This document shows, piece after piece, positions 14,844 to 39,900 of a DNA stretch of 64,000 bases. Every line of letters starts with the position of its first letter. The stretch's first letter is position 1. The notes below the pieces were generated by a model. That model did no database searches, was not told the DNA's origin, and saw only the letters and a list, made by a program, of their open reading frames with translations. Position numbers and translations under genes: made by a program. The stretch comes from Stylophora pistillata (taxonomy: Eukaryota): positions 328,765 to 392,764 of the forward strand of contig NW_019217998.1 in assembly GCF_002571385.2 (NCBI RefSeq), read 5' to 3'.

Positions 14844-15608
14844 TCACTTAAGCTGTAGAGATTTCAAGTCAATCCCAACGTCTTCCACACCTTGATCGCC
14901 TTCTAAAAGTTTGATCACCTCCTCGAACTGAGGGCTGCATTTTACATTGGCACAAAGCGAAAATTTTGATCTATCATCAGTTATGGTGGGCAAAATGGTT
15001 TGCTTTCGACCTTGCTTTCTTTGGCGACCTCGCCATTTCATTGCCAAGCTTCTTGCTTTCACAATTGTTGTAATGGAGAAATGTTCTTTACCATCTGGAG
15101 GAACAGAGAGCGACCTTTTTCTTGATGTAACCATCAACAATGCTGGCGTTTCACTTGCTCGTCTTTTTTCAGTCGTAGGCAGCTTGCCTTTTATCATTTC
15201 TGTCGCTCGCCCTGAACGATCGGCTTGCAGTTTATTTTTCGAAGAAATGTCGCCAACTTTTCCTCGTGGCTTTGACGAACTGTTACCTGGTTTTGCATTT
15301 GAGCGAGATAACTGTAATGGCTTCGAGGAGAAATTTACTTTCTTAGAAGAATATTGTCCGATTAAACTCGATCCCTCGCGACTCCATTGTTTTGTAACAT
15401 GGTAACCCGCAATTGAAGATACGGTAGCAAGAGTTGTACTTCTCTCCCTCGACTTAAGTCTTTCTTTTCCAATCCCTGTCATAATTGATTCATTTTTGGC
15501 ACTTTTAATGCGATTTGTACCTTTTCCACGTGTAATTGAAGGTGCCATGTTATATCTCCGTAATTCCAAAACTGGATCAACTTGGGTAAACAGACTAGTG
15601 TGTGGCAT
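14844..15608 (-). CDS. Uncharacterised basic, S/K/R-rich protein (single-exon ORF, 254 aa)
   Basis: 765-bp ATG-initiated open frame in AT-rich surroundings; no recognisable domain. Confidence 0.5.
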   Translation of the reverse strand: MPHTSLFTQVDPVLELRRYNMAPSITRGKGTNRIKSAKNESIMTGIGKERLKSRERSTTLATVSSIAGYHVTKQWSREGSSLIGQYSSKKVNFSSKPLQLSRSNAKPGNSSSKPRGKVGDISSKNKLQADRSGRATEMIKGKLPTTEKRRASETPALLMVTSRKRSLSVPPDGKEHFSITTIVKARSLAMKWRGRQRKQGRKQTILPTITDDRSKFSLCANVKCSPQFEEVIKLLEGDQGVEDVGIDLKSLQLK

Positions 15609-17450
15609 GTCTTCGAAAAAACGCGTAAAAGATTGTGTAAGTCTTACATTTCCGGCAACATAACTAAACCACTATCTCCCGTCGCGATTCAACGGACCCT
15701 ATCTGTTTGTTCATGTTCTTTCTGTAACGATAAACTCGATGGGCTATTTTCTCATTACGACTAACGCCAAATTGAAAACCGTCTTTTGTGTTCGCACACC
15801 CGTATTACCTCCCTATTGTGTGGAGGCTTGCATCAAGATGTGTCTCTTTCCACTGAAAGCCAAGCGTGTCATATTGACAACGAAATGTAAATTCCCTAGA
15901 TCAACAATAGTGTTACTGTCAGCTTAGCCTCTTGTATTATGCGCTTTGCTTGTTAATTGTTTCAATGTTGACATTTGTTTCGGTGAAATATAGAAAGCTG
16001 ATTTCCAAATTTGTACCTGGCAGCCAATTGCACAGTTTAAATCTAAAACAAACTCAACGCGACAGCCGGCGATAAGTTATTTACACAGTGAAAGATAATA
16101 GAGTCATAGGATTGTGCTCTTTCTTTGGACAATGGGGTAAATTATCAGACAAAAATTGGCTTTATATTGTACTGTACTTTAGTACATGAAAGATGTAGTT
16201 TCCTTGTCAGTGACTTCGAAGAAATTAGCGGAGTTATTGTGCACTTACCAGACCAGGGGTTTATCCACTTCCATATATTTCGCACCAAATACAAAAATAG
16301 AACTTTAAGTTACGATATTGAGTCGATGTTGGAGTGATGTAAAATTGCTTTTAATACAATAAAACTATGAAATGATCGTTTGATTCGATGTAAAAGCGTT
16401 TAAAAGAAAGAGTAAATCGAAAAGAGGCGAATATGGTGAGTTAAGATAGACAAATAACTCAGATTGCACAGACTGCAAAAACACAGGATAGTTATCATGA
16501 GAATGGACAAATTTTGACGAAGCTCGGTTAAATATGCGTCACTAATCGGAAGTATTCAAGGATGACACTGAAAAAAGCTATTCTTAATTTTGAGTTAGAA
16601 TCAAAATTTAAACAGGGTCGGATGGGTTCAGGTTTGTTACAAAATTTGTTAAGCTAGTTTTCACTGCCATGAAAATACGGGGATGACACCCGATGGCTAG
16701 GTTGAATTCGGAAGGGATTTTGCTGACTAAGTCTGATACGCATACAGTGCTTTGTAAAAGTTCTTCATCACTCAAGAACTTTAGTTGTGAATGAAATACG
16801 GAAAGTGAAAACATCCGAAAAGTACTCGTTGAAATACAGGAAGTTTATTCGATTAGGGCTTTTTATCTAGGAAAGTAATTTTTTAGCACTTTTCTTAGAT
16901 TTCAAACTTCGTTCAGTTAGAACTTACTCGAGTGGAGTGAATTGCGTGCTTAATGACACAATACATGTAAAATAAAAAACAAAACAAACTAAAAGAAATA
17001 AACATGTCGAGAGCAATTAGCGTGAAATTTTGTGAAACGGCCGCTTTCTATTTCAATGCAAACATCATAATTTTAGTTCATTTGGTTCAATTGATGATCT
17101 AGCTTTTATCTGGAGTGAGTTTTTGGACTTAATTAGCTCAGGTCTTAGTCACAATACACAAAACATTAAATATTGGAGCTAATCAGTATTTCCTCAACCA
17201 CTCGAACAATTTACCAATTACAGCTTCATTTACGAAAATGTTCCAAATTACCCGAATAATTGATTAATTAGAGCCTAATTGTCTCTTACTCGTGTATTCA
17301 AAGTTCGGCAATTCTCGTAGGATACCCTTTAACAATCATTTCATGCAAGGATTTAAATTTCTTTAATGCAGTTCGCGTGCGGTTAACATAAATATAGTAC
17401 AATCTACTTGCAGTTAGCAGTTGCTTGTTACGGTTTGTTTGCGATCTTTA

Positions 17451-18066: not shown

Positions 18067-18793
18067 GAAACCTTCTTTTCTTTCACCCTTCAATTCAGTA
18101 ACTTTTTCATGAGTGAGGTGTTTCAGAGGGCGATACACAAACACAGCAAAGATTTATCAAGATATGTATTTAAAAATTCTCCTCAGTATACAGTTCTGAA
18201 AAACCTATCCAAACCAAAAATGTGACTGTTGAACCAGCTCATAGTTCTTAAAAATAAAACACTACACGTACGCTGTATATTTAACGTGTCCTGCACGATT
18301 TACATCAATCCAAATATGGTTAAACGTACTTTCAAGTGAGGTGCACGATAGTACATTAGTGTGAGTGCGTTCGAAATATATCGTATAAGCAATACTTAAA
18401 GCTCCTTTGCTTGTTTGAATATTATAAAACAAAAAACTCTAATCATCAAGCTGTGATATCTGAGAAATGTATGCATGAGCATGAAAAAATACCAAAAGAG
18501 GTTACAATTTACCAGAAATCAAACCATTGAAAAGTTTCACTGAATATTAAGCTCCACCAAAAGAGGATCCTCTCTTAGCTTCATTTTACGGGCAAGGGAT
18601 GCCTCTAAAAAGCGAGAATTATGAATGAAATCAATTATTAGAAAAATCCAAATACTTCCAACAAAAACTTTCTGGAAAGGTGCTTACGATCTACAACTTG
18701 TGACATATTTATCGTCTGTAAACGATCTCGCTTCGTTTTAGACCCTAAGGTAAGATATGTCACATGACTTTAAGACACCGCAATAAAACAACA

Positions 18794-18987
18794 TCATTTC
18801 TTTGAAATGTTAGACACTCTTCTTGTCCTTGCATTTTCCAAAGCCCTGGCCTTGCTCTTGCTACAAATCGAGGAGTGCTGTTCGTCATCCTGTTCCATAC
18901 AATCATCCCCACAGTACCCTTGAGTGTTACACTTTTTGCACCACACTTGAGCTGGCTTACCACACAGGCAGAAATACTCGCAGCTCT
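18794..18987 (-). CDS. Terminal exon encoding a MYND-type zinc finger
   Basis: FCLCGKPAQVWCKKCNTQGYCGDDCMEQDDEQHSSIC fits C..C/CxxC/YCxxxC/HxxxC spacing; acceptor TTTATGACAG| is phase 1, matching the donor at 19546. Confidence 0.7.
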
Positions 18988-21900
18988 CTGTCATAAAGAG
19001 ATAAAAAAAAATCATAATTAATGAGGGGCACTAGTTTATTAGCATTTAGATGCTATTTTGTGCTACCCTCGCTAAATAAAGACTTTACTTACTTACTTAC
19101 TTACTTACTTACATAGCTGTCAGTGTTTGCAGATCTAAAACCTCTTGGAGCAATTCACCGTTTTCGAAGGAAATATCCGGAGAATAAGCAAACCTAACCA
19201 CGCCCCCGTGACTCCTGATCTAGTTAGTATTTTCACAAACCTTTCCTTGTTAGAGAATCTTTGATGGTGACTGCTTAACTATCGCAAAAAGCACTATGTA
19301 GCCCAATGAGTAAATTTTTGTCTTCCCACAACTATTTTGCAATGCAATTTTAGTCCTAACTAATACTGGAGTTGCAATGTTTTGTGTTGGTTTTAAGTCT
19401 ATTAGTCATCATTTTTTCTTCGTTGCTGTACATTTTCGTCATTTTTGTGTAGGAAGAAAATTAAAAACTGATAGATTGATGAGAATATATGAATAAACGC
19501 ATCTCGGGCCATTTCTCATCTTAAAAACATATCCGAGAGCTTTACCTGCACCGTGGAACACTTTGACATAGACAGTCTTCTTATAAAGCGCGGATACCAC
19601 TAATTGTGTCTCCGTTCGAGGGTCAATGATTTTAAACTTTCGTGAAATAAACAATTATCTCACTGAACCAAGGTAACCGGGCAGCGAACGATTGATGTCC
19701 TCCCTTAATTCTGCTAATGTTCCTCCTTTCTTGGCGTTCACTATTCCTGCCATGTGCGCTAGGATCCCCATCTCTGCGTTTGGTCGAATCACCTTCACTT
19801 GCATTTTGCGTCGCTTTACGATTTGATCTACATAAAGCCCAACGGAAGAAAAACGTCGGAATGACATCAGTTCTCGACATTTAAAGATAATCCAGAACAA
19901 GGGAGACTAAAGAAGGGTCTGCACCCTACACAGACTCGCAGAAAGACGCTTATACTTCTTACCCAGTATAACACGACGAGGAGTGTTGCTGCCTCCCCGT
20001 GGTGTTTCACCCCCAGATGATACCATTCCTATCCGAAGGTGCTCCTTCCCTACGGTTTTTTTTAGGGATTATCCATTTATATCTGGACTATAACAAATAC
20101 TAATTTTATTCTTCAGGTATGAGCAAGTGGTTTTCTACTGCAGGTTTGCAAATTTTTGTCGCGCACATGTGTCTACCCCTTCCTATGATGCCTTTTGCCC
20201 TTAGAGTATTTTGGCTATTTTCCATTGAACCTCCTGATAAAGATTAATTTTCTAGGGCAGATTGGAAGTTCTGCACGTGCTTTACCCATTGCGCAAAACC
20301 ACTTTTATGGTGCCTGTCGTGTAAAAGGATTTAGACGCAAAAGTAAACCACAATCATTTTATTTTTTTTTTATAACGAGGTCGCCCAATCACGTGACCCA
20401 AACGTGACAAATTCAAACGCACGCAAGGCGTGCAAACGAGATAAAAAATTTTAAAAAAGCAAACGAAAGTAAGTGTCAATGTTCAGTCGCCTCTAACTCG
20501 TGGATAGTGCGAAAGATTAAGTTTACTCCTCTGGTATTAAGAAGAGGTATCCTATAACATGTTCTCACCTGTGACCATCAGAACACCCGGCATGTTTTCC
20601 CCCAAAGATGACGCCCGCCTACGCAGCATAGCCTCTTCTCTTGGATTTTCATCGAAGTCATCATCATCATCATCGTCAAAGATTCCCCCTATTACCAAGG
20701 TTTCTTCCAAAGCCGAAACAGATTTGACAGGGGATTGGATCTCAGTCCTAAAGCTTGTAGTTGATACCGAAAGTTCAGGTGAAGTGGGAGGAATCGGGGA
20801 AGTGTCCGTACCCTCACTCGACCGAAGACTGCCTTTTGAACTGTGGACTGGTGAAGATTTTCTGCTGATATGTGGAGTGGTTCTGGGTGTTCCTTGTTTG
20901 GACGGGACGTTAGGAAATGCAAGAATTGGTTTTGGGCGATCAGTGTCATCTTGCGATGTCAGCTTTGGACTCTAAAGAATAAGGCATAATTTTCAGTATT
21001 TCAAGAATGGCCTCACCCATTATTATCTGGCGTTCTCACTGTGCAAACTGTTCACTCAGTACGAGCATGCAAAGTTGTAGACGAAGCAACTAAAAAGTTG
21101 CTTACCAGCGTGCAAAGCTACGAGCATGCAAAGTTGTAGATGAAGAAAAATTATACAAAATATGGTACTGAAGGCCGCCAAATTACCTTAGAATGTCAAT
21201 ATCGGTGTGCTCTTTTCAAAAAGGATCGAAGTAATTGTATATGAGGCCCAACCTTCTAGAAGGAAGGTTATATTCTCACCAGCCCAATAACACAACTTAA
21301 CGACCTGACCAGGACTCGAACCCAAACCTCTAGATTCACGGTCAGTTACGTTGGTCAAACCAGCATTCTTTTTTTTAAATTTCATTAGAACATCTCACCT
21401 TAGAACTTGGCAAAGGTTCTTCTATCTCTTCAAAAGCTGGTTCCACAGTTTCTGCAAAAGCAACTGGAGTTGTACGTTTTATTTGATCATCGCTTCGCAT
21501 CGACTCTACAGAGCTGTGCACAGACCAGGTTGCACTTCTACTAGGTTTATGATACTTTGTTTCTACACCAAAACCTTTAGAGTATTTTTCACTGTCAATG
21601 AATATGTCCGGAGTTTCTGGCGGCGTTGGATTGATTTTTCTCACTTTGCTTCTCCGGCACCGACAGTAAATTACAATGACAACTAGAAAAATGACTGAAA
21701 ATCCTACAACACACGCAATAATGATGATGTAAAGCGCCATGCCCTCTTCGTCTTTAGGAGCATCCACTACTTTCTTTTCCTCACCATCCACCCTCATGAT
21801 CGGTCGCGTTGTAAGTGTTGCGCCATTAAACTCGAATTTCAGCCCCTCTTTCACGTCGTCCCAAAGGTTGTCTACCATTGCTTGTTTCTTTGATTGGCGC

Positions 21901-24900
21901 AAAGTCATGTTGAATGTGGCTACGATGCTACCCTTTCGTACGCGACAGTCAGAGAAAGTCGCATCAGGGTAGATCTTAGATAGTTGGTTCTCGCAGTAAC
22001 TTTGAAACTGCTCTTCTTTGCCTTTGATTACCTGATCGTAATCACCTTCGAAGGTAAATTCCACAGGTATCGTAACGAGCGGATCGTCATCGTTTTCATT
22101 GCAAGTTGCGGTTGACTCGGAAAGTTGCAATGTACGCTGTGGTGTAAAGCTCGCCTGATTTTTAGTCCAGGTGATGGCATCCAAATTGGAGACAGGATTC
22201 GAGGAGGGGAACATCGCGACAACATGTCTCGTTCCATCGATAGGTAACTCTTGCAGGACAGTCACACCCACGTCGGTAGCTTGCAGCTCGGAGTTTGCAG
22301 TTGCAATAATGAACTTCTCGTTGGCAAAACTAGCTTTTATTAAGCCATCTACGAATGAAGCACCGTCTATAGATTGTGGAGTTCCTGTGGAAAACGTTGT
22401 TCGTGCAAGTTGTGCACCTACGTCTGCACCCTGATGCGAGAAGATAAAGTATACTTCTGTTTGGGGGTTTACAGCTGGTGATCCATCCTTGTTAGCTAGC
22501 TTCAGAGAGAGTTCTAGGCCACACCGATCAGAAGACTCCTTGTTGTGATCAGGTACTTGATATGTCAGCTCAGTCACAAATTTTGCGCTTTCCAGGTAAA
22601 TAAGCGACAAGAAAAAGGCATCGTTAACGTCAATGACCTCGTCCCAGTTAACATCCATTCGTTTCTTCATCTCGTCAGTGAATCGAGATTTAGAAGAGGC
22701 AGTGATGTAACCACTGATGAAAGCGACATCAACAATGTCGAACCTACAGTCTACATCTACGTCACCCGATATTTCCTTGGAACATGGAGAAACTGTGACG
22801 TTCTTACTTGGCACCTCTGAAAGTTCTCTATTTACCGTTCTGAAAACTTCAACCATGACCCCAGGGACTCCATTTTTCTTTGACGTGAATGAAAGCTCGC
22901 CAACACTTTCCGAGAAGGCTTCTGATGCTGCTATTGGTCCAAATATGATAACTGTGTTTCCCGCCACTTTATACGGTAAAACAGTAGTAGCTCTGTCTAA
23001 CTGTAAGTCATCCAAGTCATACTGAATCTCTACCTGTACTGCCAAGATTCCCATGGAGCCAGGGTTTACCCTGATGGGCATTTTCCATGTATCGTCTTTA
23101 TCAAGCGACGGTATGGGCGGACCCTCCTTCTCTCCGATATCAATCTCACCGACCCTTGGCTCCACGTTGCAGTAAAAGGAAAATTCGTCTGTGACACTTG
23201 CATTTGCAATGAGGCTGGCCGAAATGGTGACACGGCTACTGCTGTCTGCCATCAGGGTCACTACGCCAGACAATGCATCGATTTTTGCTGAAGCAGGGTT
23301 GCTTGAAGAAAACGATAGCAAGCCGCTGTAACTCGTGAAGTTGTTGATGAAATAGCTCGATCCATCGCTCATTAATATTTCAGCAAACACCGAGGTAGTT
23401 TTTTCCATAGCCAGGCCACTGAGAGTCATATTGACATTTTCCAAGCCAAACCGAACGATGTTTACAGGTTTAGAGACAATTGAAGACAAGGACAAGTTAA
23501 GAACTGCTGCATGACTGCGCGCGAACTCTGCTTGTAACGAGACTTCTCCTCTCAAACCACTTCCTTCGATCGAAAAAAGATTGCTTGGAGAGGGTCCAAA
23601 TTCATAACTACCTCCTATCTGCTGAGCGTTTTTAAACGTAAAAGAAGTGTTATGCTTATTGGAAACATCAACGACTTGTTCATTTGTCAGGCCGAGAAGA
23701 ACTTTGAGTAACACCCGCTGGTAATGTCCTTGGATAACCTGTTTTAGTTCTGTAACCTTCGATGCGCCGGAAGTTTCAGGATAAGGCACAGCGCTGATAG
23801 CAAGGTTAGTACTGCCCACCACAGTAACGTTGACTTCAACAGAATTGACATTCGTGACATGTACGATTAGTTTGCCTGTTCCGAACAATCCTTGGTTGTT
23901 TGCTTCGATGTAAGGTGCGCCATTAGAAGTAGCACTGAAGAGACCATTAGATTTCGAAGAGTCGTCAATTGTATAACGGTCCCCTTCTGAAGTGATATCC
24001 ATCTCCGTTCCATTCTCATACACCAAAAGCACCTCCAAAAAAGATTTATGGGGAACGCCAGCCAAACCAGCTGGATTCATTGGAGAGGCGATAAATGCCT
24101 GTATGAGTCGAGCTTTAGCTGTGTACATCCCGCTGTCATCGATGTTTATGACCCGTACCCTAAGATGAGCTGTGATTTTCTTCCTTTTGCTAGGGTCCAC
24201 ACTTCTGTCACTCACAGTGACTTCCAAATTGTGCTCACCAACTGTTTCAAAATCCAACTCCTTTGCTAATGTTATGACACCTGTTAAAGATTTGCAAAGA
24301 AGGATTTTAAAAACTTAACCTCTGACAAAAAATTGCGAACAACAAAGACCAGACAACTTATAACAGACAGGAAAACTATGCCACACTAAAAACTAAGTTG
24401 AAGGAAATGGCCTTTAATGAAAAGAGGAGATCGCATAGAAAAAGTCTCTTCCCTTTATTGCGAGATTGAAATGAGTAGCTCGCGCATGTTCAATGAGGGA
24501 AAGGAACGAGAGGTAATTTCATTGGTATTTTACCTACTGTTACTCTGACTTACCCGTGACGTTGTCAATATCGAATGTTCCCAAACTGTTACCAGCAGTT
24601 AAGGAGTAAGACAGAACACCATCTTCACCGTAATCCCCATCAGTTGCATTCACATCAAAGATAACTGTTGCTATGCTGGTGTTTTCTCTTAGTTCTATTA
24701 TTTGGTTATCAGCATGATCCAGGACTGGTGTGAAGTCATTAACGTTCTGTACAGTGATGACCAAAGGTACAGAGCTGTTAAGCGGGACAGGTGTTCCTGC
24801 GTCCTTAACAAATACAACCAGTTGGTATGTACGGTCAGCGGTATGGTTTTGAGTCTCTATATCTAGGTCCTTGGCTGCTCGGATGATGCCTTGCTTGGAC

Positions 24901-27900
24901 TCGATGCTGAAAAATCCTAGGTCGTTGCCGCTCGCAATAGAATAGGTGAGCTCACTATTGGATCCTGAATCAGGATCATTTGCCTCCAAAGTGATGATTT
25001 CCCCTCCAGCGGTAACAGTCTCGTCGACAAGTTTAGAGTAAAAGTTTTTAAAGAAGGTAGGGATATTGTCATTAACATCCTTCAGACTAATATGAATGGT
25101 GGTCGTTCCAGATTTGCGGTTGCTGGTTGCTTGGTCTGTCGCTGTGACAATAAGACTATATGTACGCTGAACTTCTCGGTCTAAGGCAGCATCGTTGGTT
25201 ATAATACCATTTGCAGAATCTATCATGAACCTTAGATCGTTGTTCCCGTCTGTAATACTGTATACTATCTCTCCGTCTATGCCAAAATCCGCATCGGTAG
25301 CATTTGCATTGTAAATAACGCTTCCCTCTACAATGTCCTCATTAACTATGACTGACACATCAGAGGATGCAAAACTTGGTGCGAATTCGTTCTTGCGAAT
25401 CACGTGCATGATGAGTGTAGTGTTTGAGGAAAGCAACGGTGTCCCAGCATCCTGCGCTCCCACAACCAGAGTGTGCGTCCACGTTGAAAGCTTCCTGTTA
25501 TCCATGTCGAGTGAGGCTTAAGGGTCGAAAACATTAAAATCAGAAACGGCCATGAAGAAGACCAAATTACCAACTAGGTAGGTATTTATTGGAAACAAAC
25601 GGTAATAAGGGTTCATTAAAGCTATTGTAACATTCAATGCTAGATGTATATCCAACATTTACATTTTTGGTTCATTTGATATTCCTCCCGTAAAAAAATG
25701 TCTGTAACTATAAACAGATTAAGGCTACCAATTTTTGCGACATCACGCGCTGTATTAAAAAAAAGTTTCATTACAAAATCTTCAGCGCAAGAGCAACAAA
25801 ACTATTAGGACTGTCCCTCGATAAAGGGGAATATTTAACCCCGGGGGATTCTTTGGAGAGGAATTGGTTATTAAAGAAAAGGGCCGAACCGACAAGAAAT
25901 TGATATTACAATGCAAGCCAAAAGCTGCAGGAAAGAAGCCATTTTCTTACCGTTTAACGTGAGCTTTCCGTTGGAAGAGTTTATACTCCATAACCCATCG
26001 CTAAACTCAGTTGAATTCCTGACCAAGATTGAATACGACACGAGACCATTCAAACCACCATCGGGATCCGAAGCAAGGAATGTAAATACATCTGATCCAA
26101 CAGCTGTGTCTTCATCAACATTCACTTCATACCGAGGCTGAGAAAATGTGGGTGCGTTATCGTTCAAGTCCAACACGCTCACGTACACGGTAAATACCGC
26201 AAACTTCACGTTTCCCTCATGGTCCGAGTCACGCGTGTGGATTGTCAGAGTGTAAGATGGGGAGGTTTCGTAATCGAGTGAAGATATAAGCATCAGTTTT
26301 CCAGTTGATGCATTAAGGGAAAACTTCCCTTCGTCGTTACCTACAAGTACAAATGTTACCATCAAATGGACTTGCTACTCGTAAAAATAGTAAGATTAAT
26401 ACGGAAAATTTTAACATAGATCTTTGTTGTTCGTTCCTTTGTCATATTTTGGGTGATTGAAACTGAAAGGGGACGGAATTTACAATTTCCCGAGTGATAG
26501 ATGATGGAAAATAGCATGTAAGGTAACAAAACCACGTTAATCCTTGACTGGAGCTTGCCTAGATATTTTTGTTGATTGAGGGTAAAAACTTGAGAGAATT
26601 ATACATTTTTAAGCCAAACATTTTGAAGATTTCAAGTGTCTCAGGTCAGAGCTTTTCAACGTAAAGAAAAGTCGAACACAGACTACATATCACGTGGGAA
26701 AATATTCCCTGCTAATGATAAACAGAGTTGCAGAACCAACCCATCCGTTACCGGCTTGAAAAGGTCAAAGGCACTGAGCAAGAAAAGATGTTCAAAGAGA
26801 AAAAAAAGACATAAGCTGAATTGTTTCACTCGTACCCACCTGAGCTAATGACGAAAGTAACCCGTCCCTGCTCCCCATAGTCCTGGTCTGTAGCGTTGAC
26901 ATCAAACACAAAAACTCCATCCCCAGCAGGCTCATTCTCAGCAAAACTGAAGTTAAACGAGGAATTATGTTGAAGCTGCGGTGTGAACTCATTGACAGGC
27001 GCGATGCTGATATTGACTGTAACACTTGTGTTCATACTTGGCGTTCCCATGTCTTTAGCAAGGACAAATAAAGAATGATTGAAATCAGGTGTCGGTTCTT
27101 CATCCAAGTCGACCGAAGCATTTACTTGCACCTCCCCTGAAGTGCTGTTAATGGTGAAAATTCCAGCTTCGTTCCCTGCTATTATAAAATAAAGGACTTT
27201 GCTGTTTAAGCCTTCATCAGGATCGTGAGCATTGAGTGCGATCACGACGTCACCGGTAGCTGCATCCTCCTTGACAGTAGTGGCAATTGATGGGTTGTTA
27301 AATGAAGGAGCATTGTCATTAATATCAGAGATAGTAACTACTACCTGTCCGTCTGTGAAGCGCACCTTTTCAGCAACGGCACCGTCGGATGCTCGCACGG
27401 TGAGCGTAAAAACGGCGGTCGTCTCACGGTCAAGCTCTTCGATGGTTGTGATAACTCCAGTCGAGCTGTCGATAGAAAATTTGTTCCCAGTGTTCCCAGC
27501 AACTATAGAGAATGAAATATCTCCTTGAGAACCAGAATCTTGATCAGTTGCGGTAACCGTGATGACGGTCGTGCCATTGGAAGTGTCCTCCGAGATAGAT
27601 GCGCTGTAGGAACCATTATCAGGGTCAAATATGGGTGAGTAGTCGTTGACATAACGAACTTCGAAGGGCTGGGAGTTAACCTGGATAACCAAACAAGCAT
27701 GTAAATTTAAATTAATTAGTTGCGCGAGCAACTAGTTTCAAATTTATATTCCTTCAATCATGAATTAAAGCCGATAAATTCACTAACAGATATTGACAAT
27801 CAAGTTCTCCAAGACAGAAAAACGCTCGAATGTTTTTTCATAACACTGAGAAAATATCGGGACCCAAACGATCCATTAAGATCACCGATCACTTCACGTG

Positions 27901-30900
27901 CCCCTCTGCCAATGTAATCTATGGCATAACTTGCACTTATTGCAAAAATATTTACATCGGCGAAACAGGCAGAAGACTAGGTGACCGATTCCGAGAACAC
28001 CTTCGCGACGAGGAGAGGAATGACAAGAACATATCGAAGCCAGTCGCTTGACATTTCAATTTACCTAATCATTCTAAGCAACATATAGCAATCTGCGGTC
28101 TTTCCTTACACTTAGGTAGCACGGAAAGCCGTAAAACTCTTGAACAAAAGCTCATCTTTCAAACCGGCAGTCTAAATCCCACAGGTATCAACGAACGCTT
28201 TTCATTCCACTAATTTATTCGTATTTTTCTCGTTGCCATGTTCCCGCCAATAAAGTAGCTCCATTTTCTGCCTTTAAAAGCACACAAAACCCACAATTCC
28301 TCTATTCGCTCCGACGAAGGGCTAACGCTCGAAACGTCAGCTTTTATAATCGTAACGGTGGCCAATTTACCATTTCAACTTTGTTGATATAATCAAATTG
28401 TTTTTTAATATGTTGACATGGATGTAAACAGGAAAATCTTAAATTACCTGTCTTTACCTCGCCTAACAAACTATAGCCAAACCTAGATGATTGAAATACG
28501 TTTAATTTCATTGCCACTCTCAGACTAATGGTTCATATTACAGTTCCTTTCAGTGATAACTATTGCCTGTGAGGAAGCAATTGTTCGTTGTCATTGATGC
28601 TCTCATTTTTTTTGGCAATCATTTTTCAGTTGTTACCTTGAGTCTCTGGGAAATCTTGTTATTTATTTTTCTCGAGTTGTTAGTGACCCGTACATTATAA
28701 ATTCACAAGCATACTACTACATACCACGTGGCCTTGGTTGGACTCGAATACCAGCTCATATCCAATGCCATAGAAAGAAACAGACAGGTTCTTAAACTCC
28801 ACTCTCTCTTCCTCCACTGTAACATTTAACACTCCACTTAATGTTCCATTTAAATCAGATGGTTTGAGCGAAGCAGAAATAGACCAGTAACCTTTCAGTG
28901 GGTTTCCACGCATGCGCGTACCAAGGTCTCTTACTTCCACAACTGGGGGAACTCCAAATATTTCTGATTGATTAGCTTTGTCGGGCTGTGTAATGACTTC
29001 TAGGTAGAATTCTCGCGCACTTATGTTGAAAGTCTCTGAGGTTACGGATAGACTTGAATAGGAAGAGACTGGTTCTGTGATAACGGTGAACTTCATTTGA
29101 CGCTCTTGAGCCACGTCGAAGAAACGCAAATCTTGAAATTCCACGCGCCCATTGGTTTCAACTGGAAATAAAGTAGTACCGTTGACTACAGAGTTCTTAG
29201 CACCGACCATTGTGGCATTTATCGACCAAGTTCTCCCTCTCCAACCGATGTTATCTACCAGCGAGTCTGGATATGCATTCCTTATCTCTACAATCGGCTG
29301 ACTGCCACAGATCACTGTGTCATTACAATCACCAGGTTGTTGCGCAATTTTGAGATAAAGCATTCTCTCAGATACATTAAATGCCGTGGAATTGCCAATA
29401 AAGGCATAGCTTGAGGCCGGATCAGTCTTGACCTCAAGTGCTAGGATGTAGTTTATTCCAGAGATGTCGATGCTGAGGTTTGAAAACGAGGCTACACCTT
29501 CGACAAAGTCTACTTCAGCTGTACCATTTACATGTCCATTGTTATCCGCAGGATTAGCCAGTGAGGCAGTGAACAACCAACGACGTCCTTTCCAGCCAGT
29601 GTTGTCCACAATTTTACCGTTCGCTGAATCTCGAACCTCAATTCTGGGCTGCTGTCCAAAACTGACTGTTTCGTTCGCGTCTTCGGGTTGGGTGGTTACA
29701 GTAAAATACATGATTCTTTCTTTGACCTCAAATGACTGCGAAGTAGCGTTAAAGCGAGAAGCTGCTGGTTTGTTGACATAGAAGAATAATTTGTAGTCAG
29801 AACCGTTGTGAGTGATACTTAAATCGGTGAAATTCGCCCATCCATTAACCAGTGTCACAGTCACATTTCCTTCTAACACCGCCATGGAGTCCCCGGTGTC
29901 ATTCTGTATGGTTGCCATGACAGTCCACTTACTAAGCGAACCGTGCCCTAAGGTAGTTACTAACTTGCCATCAACGTCCACAAGTTTGAGTTTGGGCTGT
30001 GCAGTGAACGGTACAGTCTCGTTCCCGCCACTCGGCTCAGTCACCACCTCCAATCTAGAGGGAATAAGGAAGCTGAACACGTTACTTGCTTCTTCTGCCT
30101 CCTTCTCAGCTTGGACTTCGTCATACCGAAGGGTAGAGTTGCCTGTTACGTTCTGTTGATCTGAAAGACAAACACATTATTTATTGACGTAACTGGCCCG
30201 TGTCATACTCGTCTAGATAAGCTTGTAACTTTAAATTGAAGAAGTTGTGATGAGGCCACTGTTGGACAGTTTTGGACGAGACTAATTTTTCAGAATTAAC
30301 TGAAATGCTCCAGAAAAATTTCGTTACTGGAGATGTTAGAATCTAAGAAACCTTTCATTTAGCTGCGTCAGAGTGCAACCCAGGTGACACCGAAATGTGA
30401 TACCATAAAATTAACAAATAGTAAACACCACAGCGTACACTATTGAGTTATGGATGCACGCGTGAGGTTGCTAAGCACGAAAGCGACTCTAGCTTCTTGA
30501 TTGCTTAGCAAACCTCCCAAGTGCATCCATAACTCAATGGTGTACGCTGTGGTGTTTACCTTTGTTTTATAACATAACATTGATACATTGTAGCAAAAGA
30601 GTTCCCTTTTATTTAAAAAATCTTACGTGACCATAAAAAACAAGCGCGCGCGGAAAAATAGTCTTTGCATTTGCTCACGTCAGCAGCGTACACCCATGGG
30701 TAAATGGGGGACGCTAAATTGACCAATCAGAGCGCGCGCCTTACTTTGGTTATGTTATATATTGGCTTCCGAAAAAGATGTGTTAATAACAGGCAATAAA
30801 GAAGACTTACAAGTTTCGTTGGTAGCTCGAACACCTCCGGTCGGGTCAACAGGCTCAGGGATTGGGTCCGCTATGGACAGCGATACGATTTCAGTGTTGA

Positions 30901-33900
30901 GTTGCTGCGCAAGTTGCCCTGTCTGCACATTCTCCACTACTGAGTCTCCAATCTCTTTAAGCTCATCATAGGAGGTAGTCTTGTTAACTCCTGCAAGAGT
31001 GATTATGCAAAACATTATATATAACAAAGTACTAGTCGGTTTCAGTCTGAATGGATAATAAATAAGACTTTCACTGGGACCCACACCGTGTCAAACACAG
31101 GAGTCTTAATAAGAGGAATAAGGCTTTTACGATTGACCCCCTTGGTGATTTGAAGATGCATAGGTAAGATCTCGAGTTAAAAGGAATGCAGCAATGCATA
31201 GTCTATTCGTAGCATGAGTTAAGGCAAAGCTCTTGTCTTTTGAATGACATGCCAGAAAGATAATACAGGATTTTCTGGAACGAAAATCAGTAATCAGTAA
31301 TCAAAGTTTAATGTTTTTACGTGGGACATGGTTACCCATATTGTCCGAGCCAAAGGCTCATGTATGAAACGCAAGACAACAACCCACCCACCCAACCCTA
31401 GGGGAGGACATCCATCACACAGTAATCTCGTGCGTGGGAAATTAACGTCTCCTACCCCTAACCCTGCAGGAGAGGGGACCTCCATTTATTCGTCCCTATC
31501 CGAGAAGATAAACCTTTTGTGGCGACCAAAGCCTCTCCCTTTCATCTTCACGTTAGCTTCAGTTTCATAGATCCAAAACAGGTAATCTCACAACATCACA
31601 TGACATTTCTAGGGTACGGCCGGGTACTACCCTGAGCAAAAACAGATGATAACTACTAAGAAAAGGTTTGCAGAAGATAAAAGAGGGTACTGAGGGTACT
31701 GATGGTACTGATGAAAATATTTCCATACCTGATGAAAATATTTCCATACCTGTGTAGTTCGATGAAGTATTTGAAGCCTGAGGAGGATCAGCAATCTCAA
31801 TTTCCACGGAAACGTCACCAGCGGATCGACGCCGTCTCCGACCGCTACCGTCGGCACTAACAATGTTCACCACTCGGATAAGGGATTTGTCGATACCCAG
31901 CAGGTCAGCCAGGTTATTCACAAGGTTCACTTTGAAAAAGTCATCAATGGAAACAGCCTTCATTCCAATTTGTACCTATAAATGGAAATTTGAGGTTAAA
32001 AAAAGTTTCAAACACTGTTATAAGCGAGTCAAACTTTTGACTCCTGAGCTCTGATTGGTAACTCGTGACTCGAGGTGTGAGACATGTTCTCAAAAATTAC
32101 TTTAAGGAGTTTGGTGCTGTTTAATGTAAAGCCCTACAGCATGAAAAATGTATTTGTATTTATAACCTGTTTGCTACATGATATAGGGTAATTGTGAAAA
32201 AGTACGTTCAAATCTTCTCCGACAGTTAGAGAATGAAAGTCGTTGCGTGCTAATCAAACGGTTTAGTTGGAATTCATCTGCGACCACGAACACCCTAAAC
32301 GATGATGCCTTCACAGTAGGGTACTAGACTTTCTAGCGATACCATCTCCTATTCATTTGGTTTGATTTTAGTGTAAAGTTCCTGTTGAAAACTGCCTGCG
32401 GATCACATCAACTACATTTTAGGCCATGGAACTATCATACTATGACGTTAAAAAATGGTTTCACACTGCCACTGTGGCACTCTTGTAATAACATTTCAGC
32501 CTTCGAAAAACGTTTTACTTTGTGGTGTAAGCATTTTCGACCAATTCAGCGTGATTTTTTATGACTACGCTGACGAAAATGAACTCTCTCAGGGTATTAT
32601 ATTTGTTACCTTAACGACACGCATGACTATGATGTCCACCGGGTTGGAACCGCGCAAAACGACAAATAAAGTTGCACGTTCACGATCGAAATAATTAGCA
32701 CCACTAACACTGGTCAGCGGTGGTTCAAAGTAGTCGTCAGGAGCACCCGCGGGCTTGTCAATTAAAGTGAATTCTGATCCTTGGAGCCTTGCGTTTGTTG
32801 GATTTATAAATATTCCTAGAGGGTAAAGTAAACTCAAATAAACACCAACACTCAAGGGGTTAACGTTTTCCTGTAAGTGTGAGCTTTCTTTCTTTCCTCT
32901 GCTAGTCTGTCTGGCTTTCTTCTCACCTACAATCGTTGTGTTTGTTCGTGCGCCCGTTTTTTAAATTCGTCCCGTCGTACTTTTGATCGTTTGTTCGTTC
33001 CTCAAATAGGCACAAAGAGACTGGCAGACACACAAGACTGCAAACAGATCTATTACGACGATACAAATCGCTAAACACTGTCAATCAAAATCACGCAAAT
33101 AGCAGATAAACTTGTTCTTACTTGGGAGAGGTTCGAGCGATCATAAGTTAAGAACCAAAAAAAGTGTTGACATTCGGTTTTTTTTTCTCGTTTTTCAAGC
33201 GAAATTTTATGTACGAAAATGCCGTGTTTGGGCTTATATTCCAGTAAATGGAATAAATGTCGACCGATTATACCTTCTCTGTACACATCCTGCCTCTGAG
33301 GTCTTTGATAGAATATACCAACACGGACCGCATCTGTGGGATCACTGTTTAACATATGAAGCCTGAGTTTTTGGGGCTCATTACTGGTAAAATAAAGAGA
33401 GTAGTTTGTTCCAGTCGCCACTATCCCGTAAAATGTTGAAATCCTTTCTTGGCACGTGTATCCCAGGCACCAACCGTGGTCCATGGGCCCATTAAGAAGA
33501 TTGACATAACCATTTGCAATCAGAGCAACTGGTGACAATCGTCTGGTCTCAGTGTCAGCATCTAAACTCTCAATAACTAACATCCTGTAATCAATGTCGT
33601 TACACTTGTACGCATTCCAGTTACCATACCACGAGCACATGCTATGACCAGGTGTGCCGCGAACAATTCCCTTCTCTGGAGCAACGACCGACATGTCAAG
33701 TCTAGTACCATCGGGTAACGTCGTGGCAGGTTTCGGAACGCGGTAATCACCTGTACGATATGTGAAACTCGTAATTAATACAAAACAAAGCCGCCATGAA
33801 CTGGCGACGAGAGCCAAATGTATTTAATGTCGACGTGCATAATTAGCTTTCTGCCCCCAAAAAGCAAGTGGTATATTTGTGACATACCCAATCCGTATCG

Positions 33901-36900
33901 CTTGTCTCCGCCCCACTCGAACTCGGCCTTTGCGAGCACCGAGCCCCCAACAGCGCCTGTCAAAGAACCATCGAGATCTCGGATAAGGATTTGCCTCCTG
34001 GCGTCGCAGTCCATATCCACGCAGTCGGATGGGTTGACCCACTGAGGTGTTGGCACGTTCAAGAGCAGCTTAGATTCTTCGTCAACTGATACAAAATGTA
34101 ATCCTAGAAGATAAAGAAATCAGTTGTCAATAAGTTGAACCTTTGACACAACGATGTGATATGATGGTGTAGCTCAGAACAAGACTTTTCGAAGAAATGA
34201 AGTGTCTTTCAGTGAGGAGGAAATTCCAAAACAAGAGTTTGCAAGGATACCAACGTGGCAGTAGGGAGGCAAGAACAACTGAAATGGAAAATGGATGGTT
34301 AATGATCTTAACTGACAGATTTAAATAGGTTGGGAAAACTACTTTGTGATGTGTAACCTGTTACGTGGCTGTTCTAACTCTACGCTTTGAATGTTTCACT
34401 CCCTTTTCTTTTAACCCCTACCGTAAGTCTTGAAGCGTTAGCCACATGTAAGCAGGTGTAGGTGAAGGTAATTGTAATTTAAATATAGCCTGTTGTAATG
34501 AAACATCTTTTCAGCAATCCTACTATTCCCCAATTTTTCCTCATTCATTCGTAGTCTACTAATATATTCATACCAAGTGAGTGAGATCGAGACGCATTCG
34601 TCGCTTTTTGGAAAATTATGCATTGAACGAGACAAACCTCGCACATCCATGGGATGTATAATGTCGCCAATCCACTCGTTAGACATGATAGCGTGATGTC
34701 TCTTCCCACAAGTCTCTTGAAAACCAAAGAAGGTCACCTCGTGATAAAGAGTGTAGCCATTAATTGCTGAATAATCATGAGGGCTCTCCCACGTCATAAT
34801 CGGCCCAGGTGCAGGGAGTGAGCTAAATTGCGATATAGTTATTCCAATTTTACCGTCTGACAGGAAATAAAATAACAGCGTTGTTAATGAATGTGAAGGT
34901 TCTAAGTTCCTCTATACATTTCTCAACGTGTGACATCTACCGGCCGGATGTAAACGCGACATAAATGATCCAATATTTTTGTGCTGCCCAAGGGCTTGAA
35001 TGAGCAGTCACGAAGTCATACTCTTTATTACCTTCAGCTACGTCAAATAGTACGTGTCATGATACGTTTTTAGAAAAGGAATGTGAAACTGGGTCCTGAC
35101 ACTTGACCCTTAGTGTTTGCCATTTGAAGTTATAATAGGTGAAGTTAGGAAACAACTTCAATGAAAAGTTTTAGGATTATTTCAAGAACGATGGAGTTTC
35201 AAGGTAGATGCAAGGTATAAGCATTGTATTTAAGTAAGCCACACATACCTTCCGGTGTCTTTTGAATTTTAATCGAGTTATATGGTTGCCTGGCGTATGG
35301 TAAGATGCTATCATGCTCACAGTCGTAACCAGGACTCGTGCCCACGATGAGCGTGTTCCTCACAATAACGTATTTGTCAGCAGTCTGATGCGACAGGGCA
35401 TGCGGACCCCACACATTCGGTAACATACCAACTGTATTCTCCACGGATATGACGTTATCTATTATAACACTGGGCTCGCCGTAAAGGAAGATACCATAGT
35501 CGTAGTTTCTCCAAGTCAGGTAACCAGAAAGCATGGAACACCCTGGAATTCCTCCTTTGTAAGGAAAATGCATTCCATGCCAAGCACCGTGAACTTCGTT
35601 CCCAACAGATACCCCTGGGCCGTCTGAACACTTCTCGCCACCAATTTTAAACCCAAAACGTTCACTCCCAGCCACTGTGTTGTTAATCAAGATAACTTCC
35701 TTGGCTTCGTACACTTCTATTGCTCCTGGCCAGTGCAGATTTGATTTATCCTTTCGTCCGTTGTATGTATGTATTGAGATAGAATAAACTGCCAGATTTC
35801 GTAATAAACTAACAAAGCTGCCAGTGACTCTTATTGAAGGGCCCACTGTGTGGTGGACAATATTGTCCTCAATGTTCAAGTTATTCGTTCCGAGCACACC
35901 AATACCAGTGTTGAAACCGTCGTGGAATGAATTCCCACGGACATATGAAGTATTTCCTTCCACGTCACCGGTATCGAGGAACGCTAAAGCAAATCTAAAA
36001 CAGAGGAATGATTTGTAACCTGTGAGGTTCTGACTTACAAGTAGAACACACTCGCAATTTCAAAGAAAGGAGGTGATCGATTAAAAACCGGGGGGGGTAA
36101 CTATCACGGGTTTACGTGCTTTTCTCTCGTGGACTGTTGTATTAAGTTTGAACCTATTGAAGACCATAGTTTTCTTCGTACATTTTACTTTGCATTGGAA
36201 ATGTATTCAATTAGGCCTTGAATAACATGCCCCTATATCATTCCTTCTGAAAAAGGAACTTTAAGGGGATAAGGAAAAGGATAACAACTTTCTTGTTTTG
36301 TTTTGTTATGTTCTTTTTTTCCTCTCTGCTTCTCTTTCATATTAAGTTACCCTCCATGAACTGTTCTTTCTAATTTTCCCCTCTCCTTTTTCTACTCTCT
36401 TTTCTAAATTCTGGGGTTACGCAAAAGACGCAAATGTATAAATCTCACTTATCTACATTATAGATAGTTTAAAGCTTTTTAACAAATTGACAGAGGTTTA
36501 GCGTGAGTCCACAAAATTTTGACCATTGCGATGACGAATATCGTTGTCGATAAGAATACAGGCCACGCAGTTTGTTTTTTGTTTGTTTGTTTTTTTTGAC
36601 CGCAATATGGACATTATATAAAGCAATTCTTTCAGTGATTAAAGCATTGCGTAACATGTTGACGCGAGCAGCGTTGTCTGTACTCTTATCGACATTGGCA
36701 AACTAACCAATCAGATTGTGACATTACTGTCCATTGAGAGAAAAAAACTGATTTTCTACCTAGGATCGTAATCATCAATCCAGCCCTCCTGTCCACAGCG
36801 GTTGAACTCGACATTTTCAATCCTGGCACTGCCCTTAAATTCAATTCCCTCAATTGACGTTCGGCCAATCAGAACTCTGCATCCAAAAGATTGGTCCCAA

Positions 36901-39900
36901 GCTCCAGTTGGGTAGTCTGCTCCCTCCACCAAGATATTTCTGGTTAACAGTCCCACTTCTGCCGCCAAAGTATAAGTCCAATTACCGGCCGTGTGAGTCA
37001 CGGCAATATGTTTATACTGAAGAGCTTTGTCTAGAGTCAAATTTCTCCTGTTTTGTGTAATGGCCGTTATAAAGAACTTTTCTGTTTGCTGTGGCTCAAC
37101 TGTAGTCGATGTAATGACAATTTCGTCGCCAATATTCCAATCAACGGTCTCGGATAGTAGTACCGAATGGTCTCCAGCTTCAGCAGTAACAGCTAAATGA
37201 GTCCAATACACTTTTCTTGGCCGCCCGTGCATCCACAGGAATCCAAACACGCCAAGGGCCTTGCTTCCAACATTAACATCCCGCAAAGGTAGGTCCTCAC
37301 TATACACGTTGCCCTGGAGGCTGATCATAAAATTCGATAGATAAGGCTGATCCGGCCATCCTACGATCAATCCTCCGGCAACAAAGATAATAGAAGCATT
37401 CAGGACCATACCTGGTCTGTCATCTATCTCAAGTGTTCCATATATGAACAGTTGGTTTAAATATGGCAATTCTATGTCTGCCACCATGTACCAGTGAGTC
37501 TGTATCATAACGTCACTCCCATTGGTTGGTAACCTTCGTCCATAACCCCCATACATAGGTTCAGTGCCATCCCAGTCATCCACGTTGGACCAAAGCTGGA
37601 CTTTTGCAGGTCTTCCTTTAGGAGGGGGAGGTGGTACCGGAACAATACATTTCTCATAAAAGCAACGATATACTCGCAGCGTGACATCTCGGGGTTCGAT
37701 GTTGTTATTTGGTGTGCGAGGAGCATCCCTGCCGGAGGCAATGTATGTGAACTCCTTAGTCTCGTTTACGAAACTCCAGTTACCGTGTTGAGCGTTAGCC
37801 GGTGGAGTGACGTCGGTTTTGTTTTGATAAGCTCCAGTGGTGGTGAAATGATCAGGCGTTTGCACCAACCAGTGCTTTATCCAGATATGGTCATTTTCTT
37901 CCATGTCGTAAAACTTACCGCTGTAGGTGATGTTTGTTAGCTGCCAAGCATTTTCAAAAGTGATGTTGTACTCTTCTCCAAGTATCAAGAGCGTGACCCA
38001 GCCTTGAGGATGTGTCGAGCACTTAATGCAGAAAGGCACCACGTCCATCCCATGTCTGTTTTCCAACAAAACGTTTTTGCTTATGAGGGATTCTGGCGCA
38101 ACCTCATTAAAAGCAAATCTCCTAAATTTCACAGTTGAGTCGCAGACACTTCCATTGTGAGGACCGTAGCTATCCTGGGGAGAATAGAAACAATGGTCTG
38201 GTGGTAGATTCGCGTTTAGTGGCACGAGGCTGCCGTTTGGATATCCAGTCAGAGTGCCATCTAGATCGACTATGACCGACTCATGACTCCAGAGGAAGGC
38301 ACTTCGGCGTGGGGAGTTCACAAAACGATTTTTCATGGTGTACGTGGTCCATCCGCCTTTCTTTTTAAACTCCACACACTGAGCGCAAGCACTGTAACAG
38401 GTACAGCCTTCTTGGTCGAAGTTCACGAAGGTGACGTTTTCAACAACGAGTTTGGAGAACTGTGGTAATTTTATGCCGGAGGTCGTACAAAGTGTGTTGC
38501 TCCGTATTTTCAAATCCAGGCCTTCACTCACCTGGCTGTGACCAACGATAAGCGCATTTTTAATTCTAGGACCCCCCCTCGGAGCATCTTTGGTATCGGC
38601 AAATACGTATTCAATTCCAGCGATATCATTATCGAGCATTTTAAAGTCGTGCATTTGAACTGCTCCTATTTTCACGGCTTCTGCCCCACGCATGTTGTTG
38701 TAGGCGATAAAAGAGCCAAACACAGCAGGCTTAGTAATAATTGATCCACAGCTTCCTCCTTCCATGGGATGATAAACCGGAAAAATCCACAACCCATAGC
38801 GTCCAAACGAATGAGCAGAGTTGTTGAAAAATTCGAGCATGAAGACATTCCTCGGGCAGTAATCCGGTCTAAAAGACGGGCCGTCTGGGTGCTCAAACAT
38901 CTGGTACCAAAACCCGAAATGGCTTCCTCCTGCGGCTGCATTATGACGCACCGTGTTGTTGGCATTTGTTACCCAGTAAGTTGCTGGAGTTATGTCGACA
39001 TTTAGTGCAGATGTAGAGGCGATGACAAATATACCCAAATTGTATTCGACCACGTTACCAGTTTCTATGCCGTCCTCCATGAAGAAGCAATTCCCGCGGA
39101 CATTGAACACAACATTATGGCTAACATGAAGGTTATGAATGCCATGCATTGTTATAGCACGGTTGAAGCTGTGATGTATTGCGCAGCCGCGGACATATGA
39201 ACCTGAGACGTCGCCACTGAGATGAAAATGTATCGGATAACGACCAAGACGGAATGCCTGTCCTGCATTCGAGATTTCTACATAACTAAACCTTGCTGTC
39301 ACCAAGTTCTTACTTTCCTCAGGAGCATGAATCATGATGGTTACACCAAATTCATCGCTTCCAACTTCTTCGCCAAATTTTCCTTGGAAGCAAGTCTGGG
39401 TCTGAAATTGTCCTGGTCTAAACTCGTCTTCGCACGCTTCGATTTTCTCTGTCCATGCGCTGTGCACTGAGCCTCGCACCCTCACGTTTCGCGTCAGTAA
39501 ACCCACCTCTGCGCGCGTCTCCACTTTATGAATACCATCGAACGTCTGGATTATAGAAATCTGTTTGTACTTCAGCGGTGGCGAGACTTCTAAGGTGTAA
39601 TTATCGTTGAGAACGGCTGTGATGGTAAGCTCTTCAAACTCTCGCTGCGATTTTCCAGTTGGTGCCAGAATGATGCGATCACCTGGTTTCCAAGAGACCT
39701 GTTTGACAAGATGTAGCTGAGTTGCGTTAACCTCCGCCGTTGAGCTTAGATGTGTCCACGTGATTGGGACATGTAGCCCATGAAGATCAAGCTTTCCCTC
39801 GCGTAGCGCAATGCTCTTGGTGCCAAACACAGGAATCTCTCTTGAACGAACATGGCCGTGCAGAGTGATAAGTGCCTGGCCGGGAAATGGGTCATCTTCA

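Follow-up and report, generated by a model that had tools for sequence, protein, structure and literature searches.

The window, by which we mean the entire 64,000-nt stretch of the Stylophora pistillata genome analyzed here (contig NW_019217998.1, positions 328,765 to 392,764), carries the exons of what appears to be a giant membrane receptor, all on the minus strand. The ectodomain exons (28725..51289) encode PA14, TIG repeats, two G8 domains, beta-helix regions, and Ig-like repeats, with Pfam E values of 5.8e-6 for PA14, 2e-91 for TIG, 1.2e-58 for G8 (in two stretches), and 8.4e-53 for the CEMIP beta-helix; the combination of PA14, multiple TIG, two G8, and beta-helix that defines fibrocystin and fibrocystin-L ectodomains is present in full. 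In tblastn, residues 126-4295 of the Acanthaster protein P0037 are colinear with the window from 51247 down to 28752, after which the alignment jumps the cadherin block and restarts at the juxtamembrane domain (22052-21756) and at the MYND exon. The gap in this alignment identifies the three cadherin-repeat exons (24554..27680; Pfam Cadherin 3.4e-47, 2.2e-19, and 1.6e-48; GT-AG introns, in frame) as an insertion relative to the starfish fibrocystin-L-like proteins.

The next, large exon (21399..24280) encompasses the last cadherin half, a block of Ig-like, cohesin-like, and dockerin-like stretches, the juxtamembrane domain, the transmembrane (TM) segment, and the start of the tail, as delineated by Pfam (Cadherin 1e-4, Dockerin_1 6.6e-4), hydropathy, and RNA splicing to 20971. 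The juxtamembrane domain is shared with the starfish proteins by sequence match, hydropathy places a single TM helix at about 21740-21666, and a scan of the C-terminal 778 aa of protein P0001 detects one C-terminal hydrophobic peak. The cohesin domain finds no Pfam match at E 0.001 and the model of 22602-23168 is poor (mean pLDDT 34), whereas the dockerin-like stretch has weak matches to PDB dockerins (E 0.13-0.21). The arrangement of cadherin, Ig-like, cohesin-like, and dockerin-like stretches (24554-27680 and 22085-24280) is seen in the coral genes and in the jellyfish Sanderia, and is absent from the starfish relatives; the cnidarian proteins might thereby represent a hybrid between fibrocystin-like and coherin-like architectures.

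Downstream of the TM exon, three spliced and expressed exons complete the cytoplasmic tail, which is about 381 aa long. The linker exon (20569..20971; 403 nt), bounded by RNA depth and joints, is Ser/Thr/Pro-rich and acidic, with a terminal motif, just before the ubiquitin-like (UBL) domain, that is conserved in Oculina. The UBL exon (19546..19827; 282 nt, 94 codons, phase 1-1) has GT-AG flanks and RNA joints on both sides, and its product is 93 aa long. The last coding exon (18794..18987) encodes a MYND-type zinc finger (about 18970-18863; Pfam, profile match) and a short basic end, with the terminal TGA of the tail frame ending at 18794 and a 3' UTR that, by RNA depth, extends at least to 18400. 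The last three introns (427, 741, and 558 nt) are all GT-AG, and the latter two, 20569>19827 and 19546>18987, are phase 1 each. Joining 8 exons, from 30071 to 18794, yields 2434 codons with a sole internal stop, TAA at 19657-19655, which agrees with the sequence-only reading that a continuous frame leads to the MYND-type finger, broken by one TAA. Together with about 4070 starfish-equivalent residues upstream, this gives a receptor of roughly 6,500 aa, an estimate made with the 5' end unmapped. The window gene is best described as a fibrocystin-L-like receptor with inserted cadherins, its orthology to PKHD1L1 being putative only, and the G8 exons and the tail probably belong to one gene, the link running through reading frame and colinearity rather than through spanning reads.

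Two further frames flank this gene. Upstream of the PA14 exon lies a 295-codon frame (51612-52499, minus strand) that contains the only N run of the window; a Pfam search of 51783-52499 returned no match, and we take the frame to resemble a retrotransposon ORF1/gag-like protein. On the other side, a 275-codon Ser/Lys/Arg-rich frame (14844-15671, minus strand), also without a Pfam match, belongs to the next gene downstream.

Splicing and expression of the tail

Sequences from 8 of 24 runs, representing 7 samples and 5 studies and including both RNA and DNA, cover the tail. The RNA set consists of two stranded raw-read runs (X23, X24) and two RNA contig sets (X8, X9), and the DNA-type contigs come from X1 and X2 (one sample, S1), X5, and X6. 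The splice model read from the DNA letters, with joints 20569>19827 and 19546>18987, is confirmed by raw reads, by contigs, and by the splice sites themselves: donor after 20569 (GTGAGA) with acceptor before 19827 (ATGTAG), and donor after 19546 (GTAAAG) with acceptor before 18987 (TGACAG). The first of these junctions, proposed as the RNA-seq check, is found in 22 (X23) and 62 (X24) raw reads, the second in 26 and 63, and both are also present in X8 and X9 contigs. Joint 21399>20971 is supported by 13 (X23) and 11 (X24) raw reads; a mismatch between these reads and the window at 21401 causes the joint to be recorded as 21402-C-20973. In such libraries minus-strand RNA should place first mates on the plus strand, and nearly all of them map there. 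A single X8 contig of 2966 nt covers the TM-side, linker, UBL, and MYND exons, and the read depth over the UBL and MYND exons is the same as over the TM exon.

The sequence-only reading had also allowed for a short tail that, if the donor at 20569 were skipped, would end at the intronic TAG at 20552..20554. Raw RNA-read depth across 19843-20508, within the intron, is 0, with no loose ends there, and therefore neither this short form nor a separate start of the last two exons is supported; an own promoter for those exons likewise has zero raw-read support. Low-depth intronic contigs do occur in X8 and X9 (depth 2-12 vs 200-444) and look like pre-mRNA or DNA. The joint 20569>18987, an in-frame skip of the 282-nt exon that would bypass the stop, is absent from the RNA joints listed.

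With a probability of roughly 0.68, we read the region as the 3' end of an intact fibrocystin-L-like receptor gene, both spliced and expressed, whose tail ends in a predicted UBL domain and a MYND-type finger that likely serve as a docking module, the TAA being most likely an error of the assembly.

The in-frame TAA

The TAA (19655..19657) occupies, in frame, the place of a Tyr codon. The proposal that it breaks the frame and is one base away from Tyr holds for the assembly and fails for the gene of the species, where all 8 runs, RNA and DNA, read TAT or TAC. At position 19655, X23 has 10 A and 20 G among 30 raw RNA reads and X24 has 1 A and 33 G among 34; the contigs give A in X8 and X9 (RNA), G in X1 and X2, and A in X5 and X6 (DNA-type). 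On the coding strand, A and G correspond to TAT and TAC, both Tyr. Inspection for heterozygosity turned up no stop allele in the raw RNA reads, which show only A and G: the stop is carried by 0 of 64 reads and by 0 of 8 runs, which represent RNA and DNA of 7 samples. The suggested comparison of orthologues bears out the Tyr, which is found at the stop position in all 6 members of the matching, transcript-derived protein cluster, all of them intact. The corresponding alignment column of 21 rows contains 12 F, 7 Y, 1 L, and 1 M, that is, Y or F in 19 of 21, a residue in every row, and a stop in none.

In sample S1, the letter of the window occurs at 12 of 13 variant places in one of the two runs or in one arm of a bubble; at the remaining place, 19655, neither run has it. 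Inside the 19810-19959 bubble the window passes from one arm to the other, as a collapsed, haplotype-mosaic consensus does. Among the variant places listed, 9 exonic ones have a window letter that none of the four RNA runs shows, and at two of the nine (18686 and 19655) the runs carry two other alleles; with 1.3-2.4% of the sites polymorphic in the background (21-38 in 1575 bases, a range that allows for 17 further variant rows), the binomial P for two such triallelic places is 0.006-0.019, with only these 2 of 9 sites behind the test. The mosaic pattern in S1 together with the triallelic excess favors a wrongly resolved polymorphic site, and the TAA is most likely a consensus error at a TAT/TAC polymorphism. 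Of the origins that had been offered for the TAA, a sequencing or assembly error is the one favored, a rare truncating allele is less likely, and recent loss and readthrough find no support, as neither the DNA nor the RNA of the 7 samples contains the stop and 19 of 21 aligned relatives have Y or F there.

Position 18686, in the 3' UTR, follows the same pattern as 19655, with the window letter in none of the four RNA runs and two other alleles in its place. Three further window letters, at 21401, 20953, and 21508, change amino acids and are likewise found in none of the four RNA runs; these are either private alleles or more consensus errors.

The rival that fares best, although we consider it unlikely, retains the gene and the module as described and takes the TAA for a genuine nonsense allele of low frequency, for which the assembled animal is heterozygous; such an allele would cost the protein 101 residues, comprising the MYND finger and half of the UBL, or lead to decay of the transcript. 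The window does contain other private-looking letters relative to the RNA samples (the 9 exonic places), polymorphism in corals is high, at 1.3-2.4% of the sites here, and a paralogue with the same module could buffer the loss. Moreover, the X1 and X2 contigs drop alleles, so that T/G stays compatible with them: contigs collapse heterozygous sites, and if S1 were a T/G heterozygote, the chance of obtaining G from each run would be about 1 in 4. In RNA, a T allele could be hidden by nonsense-mediated decay, given that the stop lies 109 nt before the last junction, if the 50-nt rule, as stated in a passage of PMC11043200, extends to corals. Against such an allele speak its occurrence in 0 of 7 samples, the G in both S1 runs, and the fact that the site already has two Tyr alleles, with a second triallelic, window-only site 1 kb away.

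It is highly improbable that the UBL-MYND exons are being lost in the species or lineage, leaving a pseudogenised tail, or that the short tail ending at TAG 20552 is the working form: the TAA itself, the in-frame intronic TAG, and the replaced Trp of the MYND finger could be read that way, but the exons are spliced at a depth equal to that of the TM exon with 0 raw-read depth in the intron, the 6 transcript-derived proteins are all intact, and the UBL is 74% identical to its Oculina counterpart vs 55% for the linker. Programmed readthrough or RNA editing at the TAA, switching the module on and off, can be practically dismissed, for the only point in its favor is that one lone stop interrupts a frame that is open elsewhere, whereas the stop is missing from the mRNA (0 of 64 reads), a residue is present in 21 of 21 aligned rows, and the DNA-type runs already read TAT or TAC, so that editing is unneeded. 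On the preferred reading, a consensus error, the TAA has no importance beyond the caution that, in this assembly, polymorphic sites can appear as false truncations.

The UBL and MYND domains and their spread

The fold of the UBL domain was predicted with AlphaFold2 for the orthologue P0003 (74% identical to the window domain) rather than for the window's own letters, using 21 rows, with pLDDT 89-97 over residues 51-130 and the strand-strand-helix-strand-strand order of the beta-grasp. In a Foldseek search with this model, UBL domains make up most of the top rows (best E 2.9e-4), and in VIA-align against 48,161 chains the UBL of USP7 comes first (Z 8.6, rmsd 2.1, 75 aligned), followed by the Dsk2 UBL (Z 8.0) and a long list of UBLs tied within about 1.5 Z; scores of 8.0-8.6 are near the level reached by common folds and single out no UBL subfamily. 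The class of the predicted fold, beta-grasp (ubiquitin-like), is clear, and the ubiquitin-like domain recognized from the DNA alone is upheld to the extent that the orthologue model and its fold matches can do so. Integral UBLs, namely, those of USP7, Dsk2, and HOIL-1L, talin F0, and the SHANK3 SPN, share the same beta-grasp (Z 7.0-8.6, rmsd 2.1-2.9 A over 70-78 residues), but with the coral domain at only 8-20% identity and in tied rows. No Pfam family matches at the cut-off, including searches with the 21 members (TECR_N, E 0.019, at best), and a PDB sequence search with the UBL profile gives 0 matches at E 10. In the ESM Atlas, the best score is 0.82, two ubiquitin-family clusters at 0.78-0.80 are a lead only, and the Sanderia domain retrieves no usable named match. 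With no Pfam family at the cut-off and the fold rows tied, this is probably a distinct, unnamed UBL family; the domain may resemble the N-terminal domain of SPATA1. It has no terminal GG and, in the coral, jellyfish, and starfish proteins alike, is followed directly by the MYND finger in the same chain, which suggests that, lacking the diglycine of ubiquitin-like modifiers, it is probably non-conjugatable. It is basic (17 K/R vs 7 D/E) and is preceded by an RRRAS motif, kept in Oculina, that resembles a PKA site.

The MYND-type finger of the sequence-only reading stands, even with a Pfam score below the cut-off: the window exon matches zf-MYND (PF01753) with E 9.2e-4 and 19.7 bits vs a gathering score of 22.7. 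Relatives straddle this threshold, with Sanderia (26.7), Patiria (22.9), and the paralogue on contig C84 (31.7) above it and Asterias (22.6) and Acanthaster (22.5) just below; when the tail profile is compared with the PDB, the best matches are the MYND domains of ETO2 and ETO (E 1.3e-6 to 3.6e-5). Eight zinc ligands in C4-C2HC order, spaced 1-7-2-4-3-7-3, are found in 8 of 8 proteins examined, and the first ligand pair is CxC, a variant of CxxC, in 8 of 8 relatives checked. Three positions before the His, where the Trp of DEAF-1 and ETO packs on a proline of the ligand (a passage in PMC3555993), the window protein has Asp, two corals have Glu, and Sanderia has Val, whereas the Trp is kept in all 4 starfish proteins and in the C84 paralogue. 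The replacement of Trp by Asp suggests that the ligand of the MYND finger in the window paralogue would likely differ from PxLxP. The fingers of ETO/MTG8, DEAF-1, and BS69 have the same C4-C2HC ligand set but belong to nuclear co-regulators, whereas the coral finger, with its CxC pair and Asp for Trp, is part of a membrane receptor.

Of 1.84 billion proteins, a profile made from four sequences recovers 21 at E <= 0.001, most of these 21 being single-exon fragments that end at the same donor. Alignment A3 consists of whole proteins, many with intron-derived ends; it omits P0012 and P0019 of the 21 matches, and in it P0001 is represented by P0026, a member of its cluster. P0019, a 62-aa protein from another coral, joins the beginning of the UBL directly to the latter half of the MYND and is either a mis-assembly or an odd splice. 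P0023, from the scyphozoan Sanderia malayensis, repeats the order cadherin, dockerin-like, TM, UBL, and MYND (E 7e-23 over 151 aa). Compared with Oculina, the window tail is 74% identical over the UBL and 55% over the linker; a match to Oculina at 77% identity is in keeping with a stony-coral host. With the 21-row profile, 4 long proteins emerge among 4671 candidates of 1643-4690 aa, all fibrocystin-L-like and from starfish; the matches in Asterias, Acanthaster, and Patiria each end in TM-UBL-MYND. Residues 598-778 of P0001, used as the query for long relatives, retrieved 0 of 1575 candidates. Proteins longer than 4690 aa lay outside the candidates of these searches, and the taxonomic range is a lower bound.

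The starfish proteins (XP_022097673.1, XP_038070546.1, XP_071793632.1), whose database names carry no hint of the tail module, share with the coral receptor the colinear ectodomain, the juxtamembrane domain, the TM segment, and the MYND ligand spacing, with 29-32% identity over UBL and MYND (E 1e-14 to 4e-16); they differ in having no cadherin/dockerin-like insert, a tail of about 230 aa, and the retained MYND Trp.

Within the genome, the UBL exon has a single match by DNA and by proteins P0003 and P0022, counts that are lower bounds, as these searches missed the diverged UBL exon on C84, which was found by local profile only. The gene in question (G000:C84:477188-503999, minus strand) is a fibrocystin-L-like paralogue of the window gene; it shares the cadherin/dockerin-like insert, the TM, and the overall layout, has two G8, and contains a UBL-like exon and a MYND. 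Its UBL-like exon is open at about 477829-477551 (local profile E 5e-5; hhalign probability 60%, E 8.8e-5) and has candidate phase-1 splice sites on both sides, picked from the sequence alone.

The order TM-linker-UBL-MYND is thus conserved in the paralogue, in corals (Oculina), in the jellyfish Sanderia, and in three starfish genera. The UBL-MYND module is not a coral oddity; it is common to cnidarians and echinoderms.

Possible functions and relation to known receptors

Integral UBL domains are protein-docking modules. The same has been described for MYND fingers (a passage in PMC3555993). The giant ectodomain could be engaged in adhesion or matrix contact or in glycan sensing and would be coupled, via a flexible, phosphorylatable Ser/Thr/Pro-rich linker, to the basic surface of the UBL and to the MYND finger. 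It seems reasonably likely that, given such a docking role, the UBL and MYND would bind cytoplasmic partners at the membrane; that they instead do so after proteolytic release, by analogy with the tail of vertebrate fibrocystin, is a rather doubtful alternative.

The word MYND is absent from both fibrocystin papers whose text was word-searched, one of which, PMC13424714, also lacks the word invertebrate. The literature searched, that is, titles and the beginnings of abstracts with few subscription papers, contains no description of a UBL-MYND tail in the fibrocystin family, so such a tail is seemingly undescribed, although a cnidarian protein with such a layout may already appear in earlier coherin domain diagrams or in the PMC6030884 supplement. 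Coherins, which combine cadherin and cohesin domains, are described from choanoflagellates and sponges (PMC6030884, PMC8164589, and PMC5097364). They resemble the coral receptor in having Ig-like, cohesin-like, and dockerin-like stretches after the cadherin repeats, the coral cohesin-like stretch being so named by resemblance only, and differ in that their description in PMC6030884 includes neither a fibrocystin ectodomain nor a UBL-MYND tail.

Vertebrate PKHD1 (fibrocystin/polyductin), compared here by description only, belongs to the same ectodomain family and also has a cytoplasmic tail, one of 192 aa that is released by proteolysis (passages in PMC13424714 and PMC10579373). Excerpts of PMC13424714 present FPC-L as the ancestral member and the FPC tail as novel and unique among vertebrate proteins. 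Vertebrate PKHD1L1 is similar to the coral receptor in having PA14, TIG repeats, two G8, a beta-helix, and one C-terminal hydrophobic segment, but its tail is very short, 8-9 residues in the human protein (passages in PMC11043200 and PMC13424714), and it is reported to be GPI-anchored in platelets (a passage in PMC13566292). The coral receptor, with its tail of about 381 aa containing UBL and MYND and its cadherin/dockerin-like block before the membrane, does not belong to this short-tailed type, and the early impression that such a module is unusual among described fibrocystins is borne out.

PKHD1 causes recessive polycystic kidney disease and PKHD1L1 hearing loss, and for the way in which receptors of this family signal, a folded, conserved intracellular module on the invertebrate members offers a concrete handle. 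The odds appear evenly balanced that the fibrocystin-L of the cnidarian-bilaterian ancestor was a true signaling receptor with a UBL-MYND output, that PKHD1L1 lost this module, becoming tail-less or GPI-anchored, and that PKHD1 later gained a different tail. If true, an ancestral UBL-MYND tail would reverse the usual reading in which the short-tailed FPC-L is the ancestral form.
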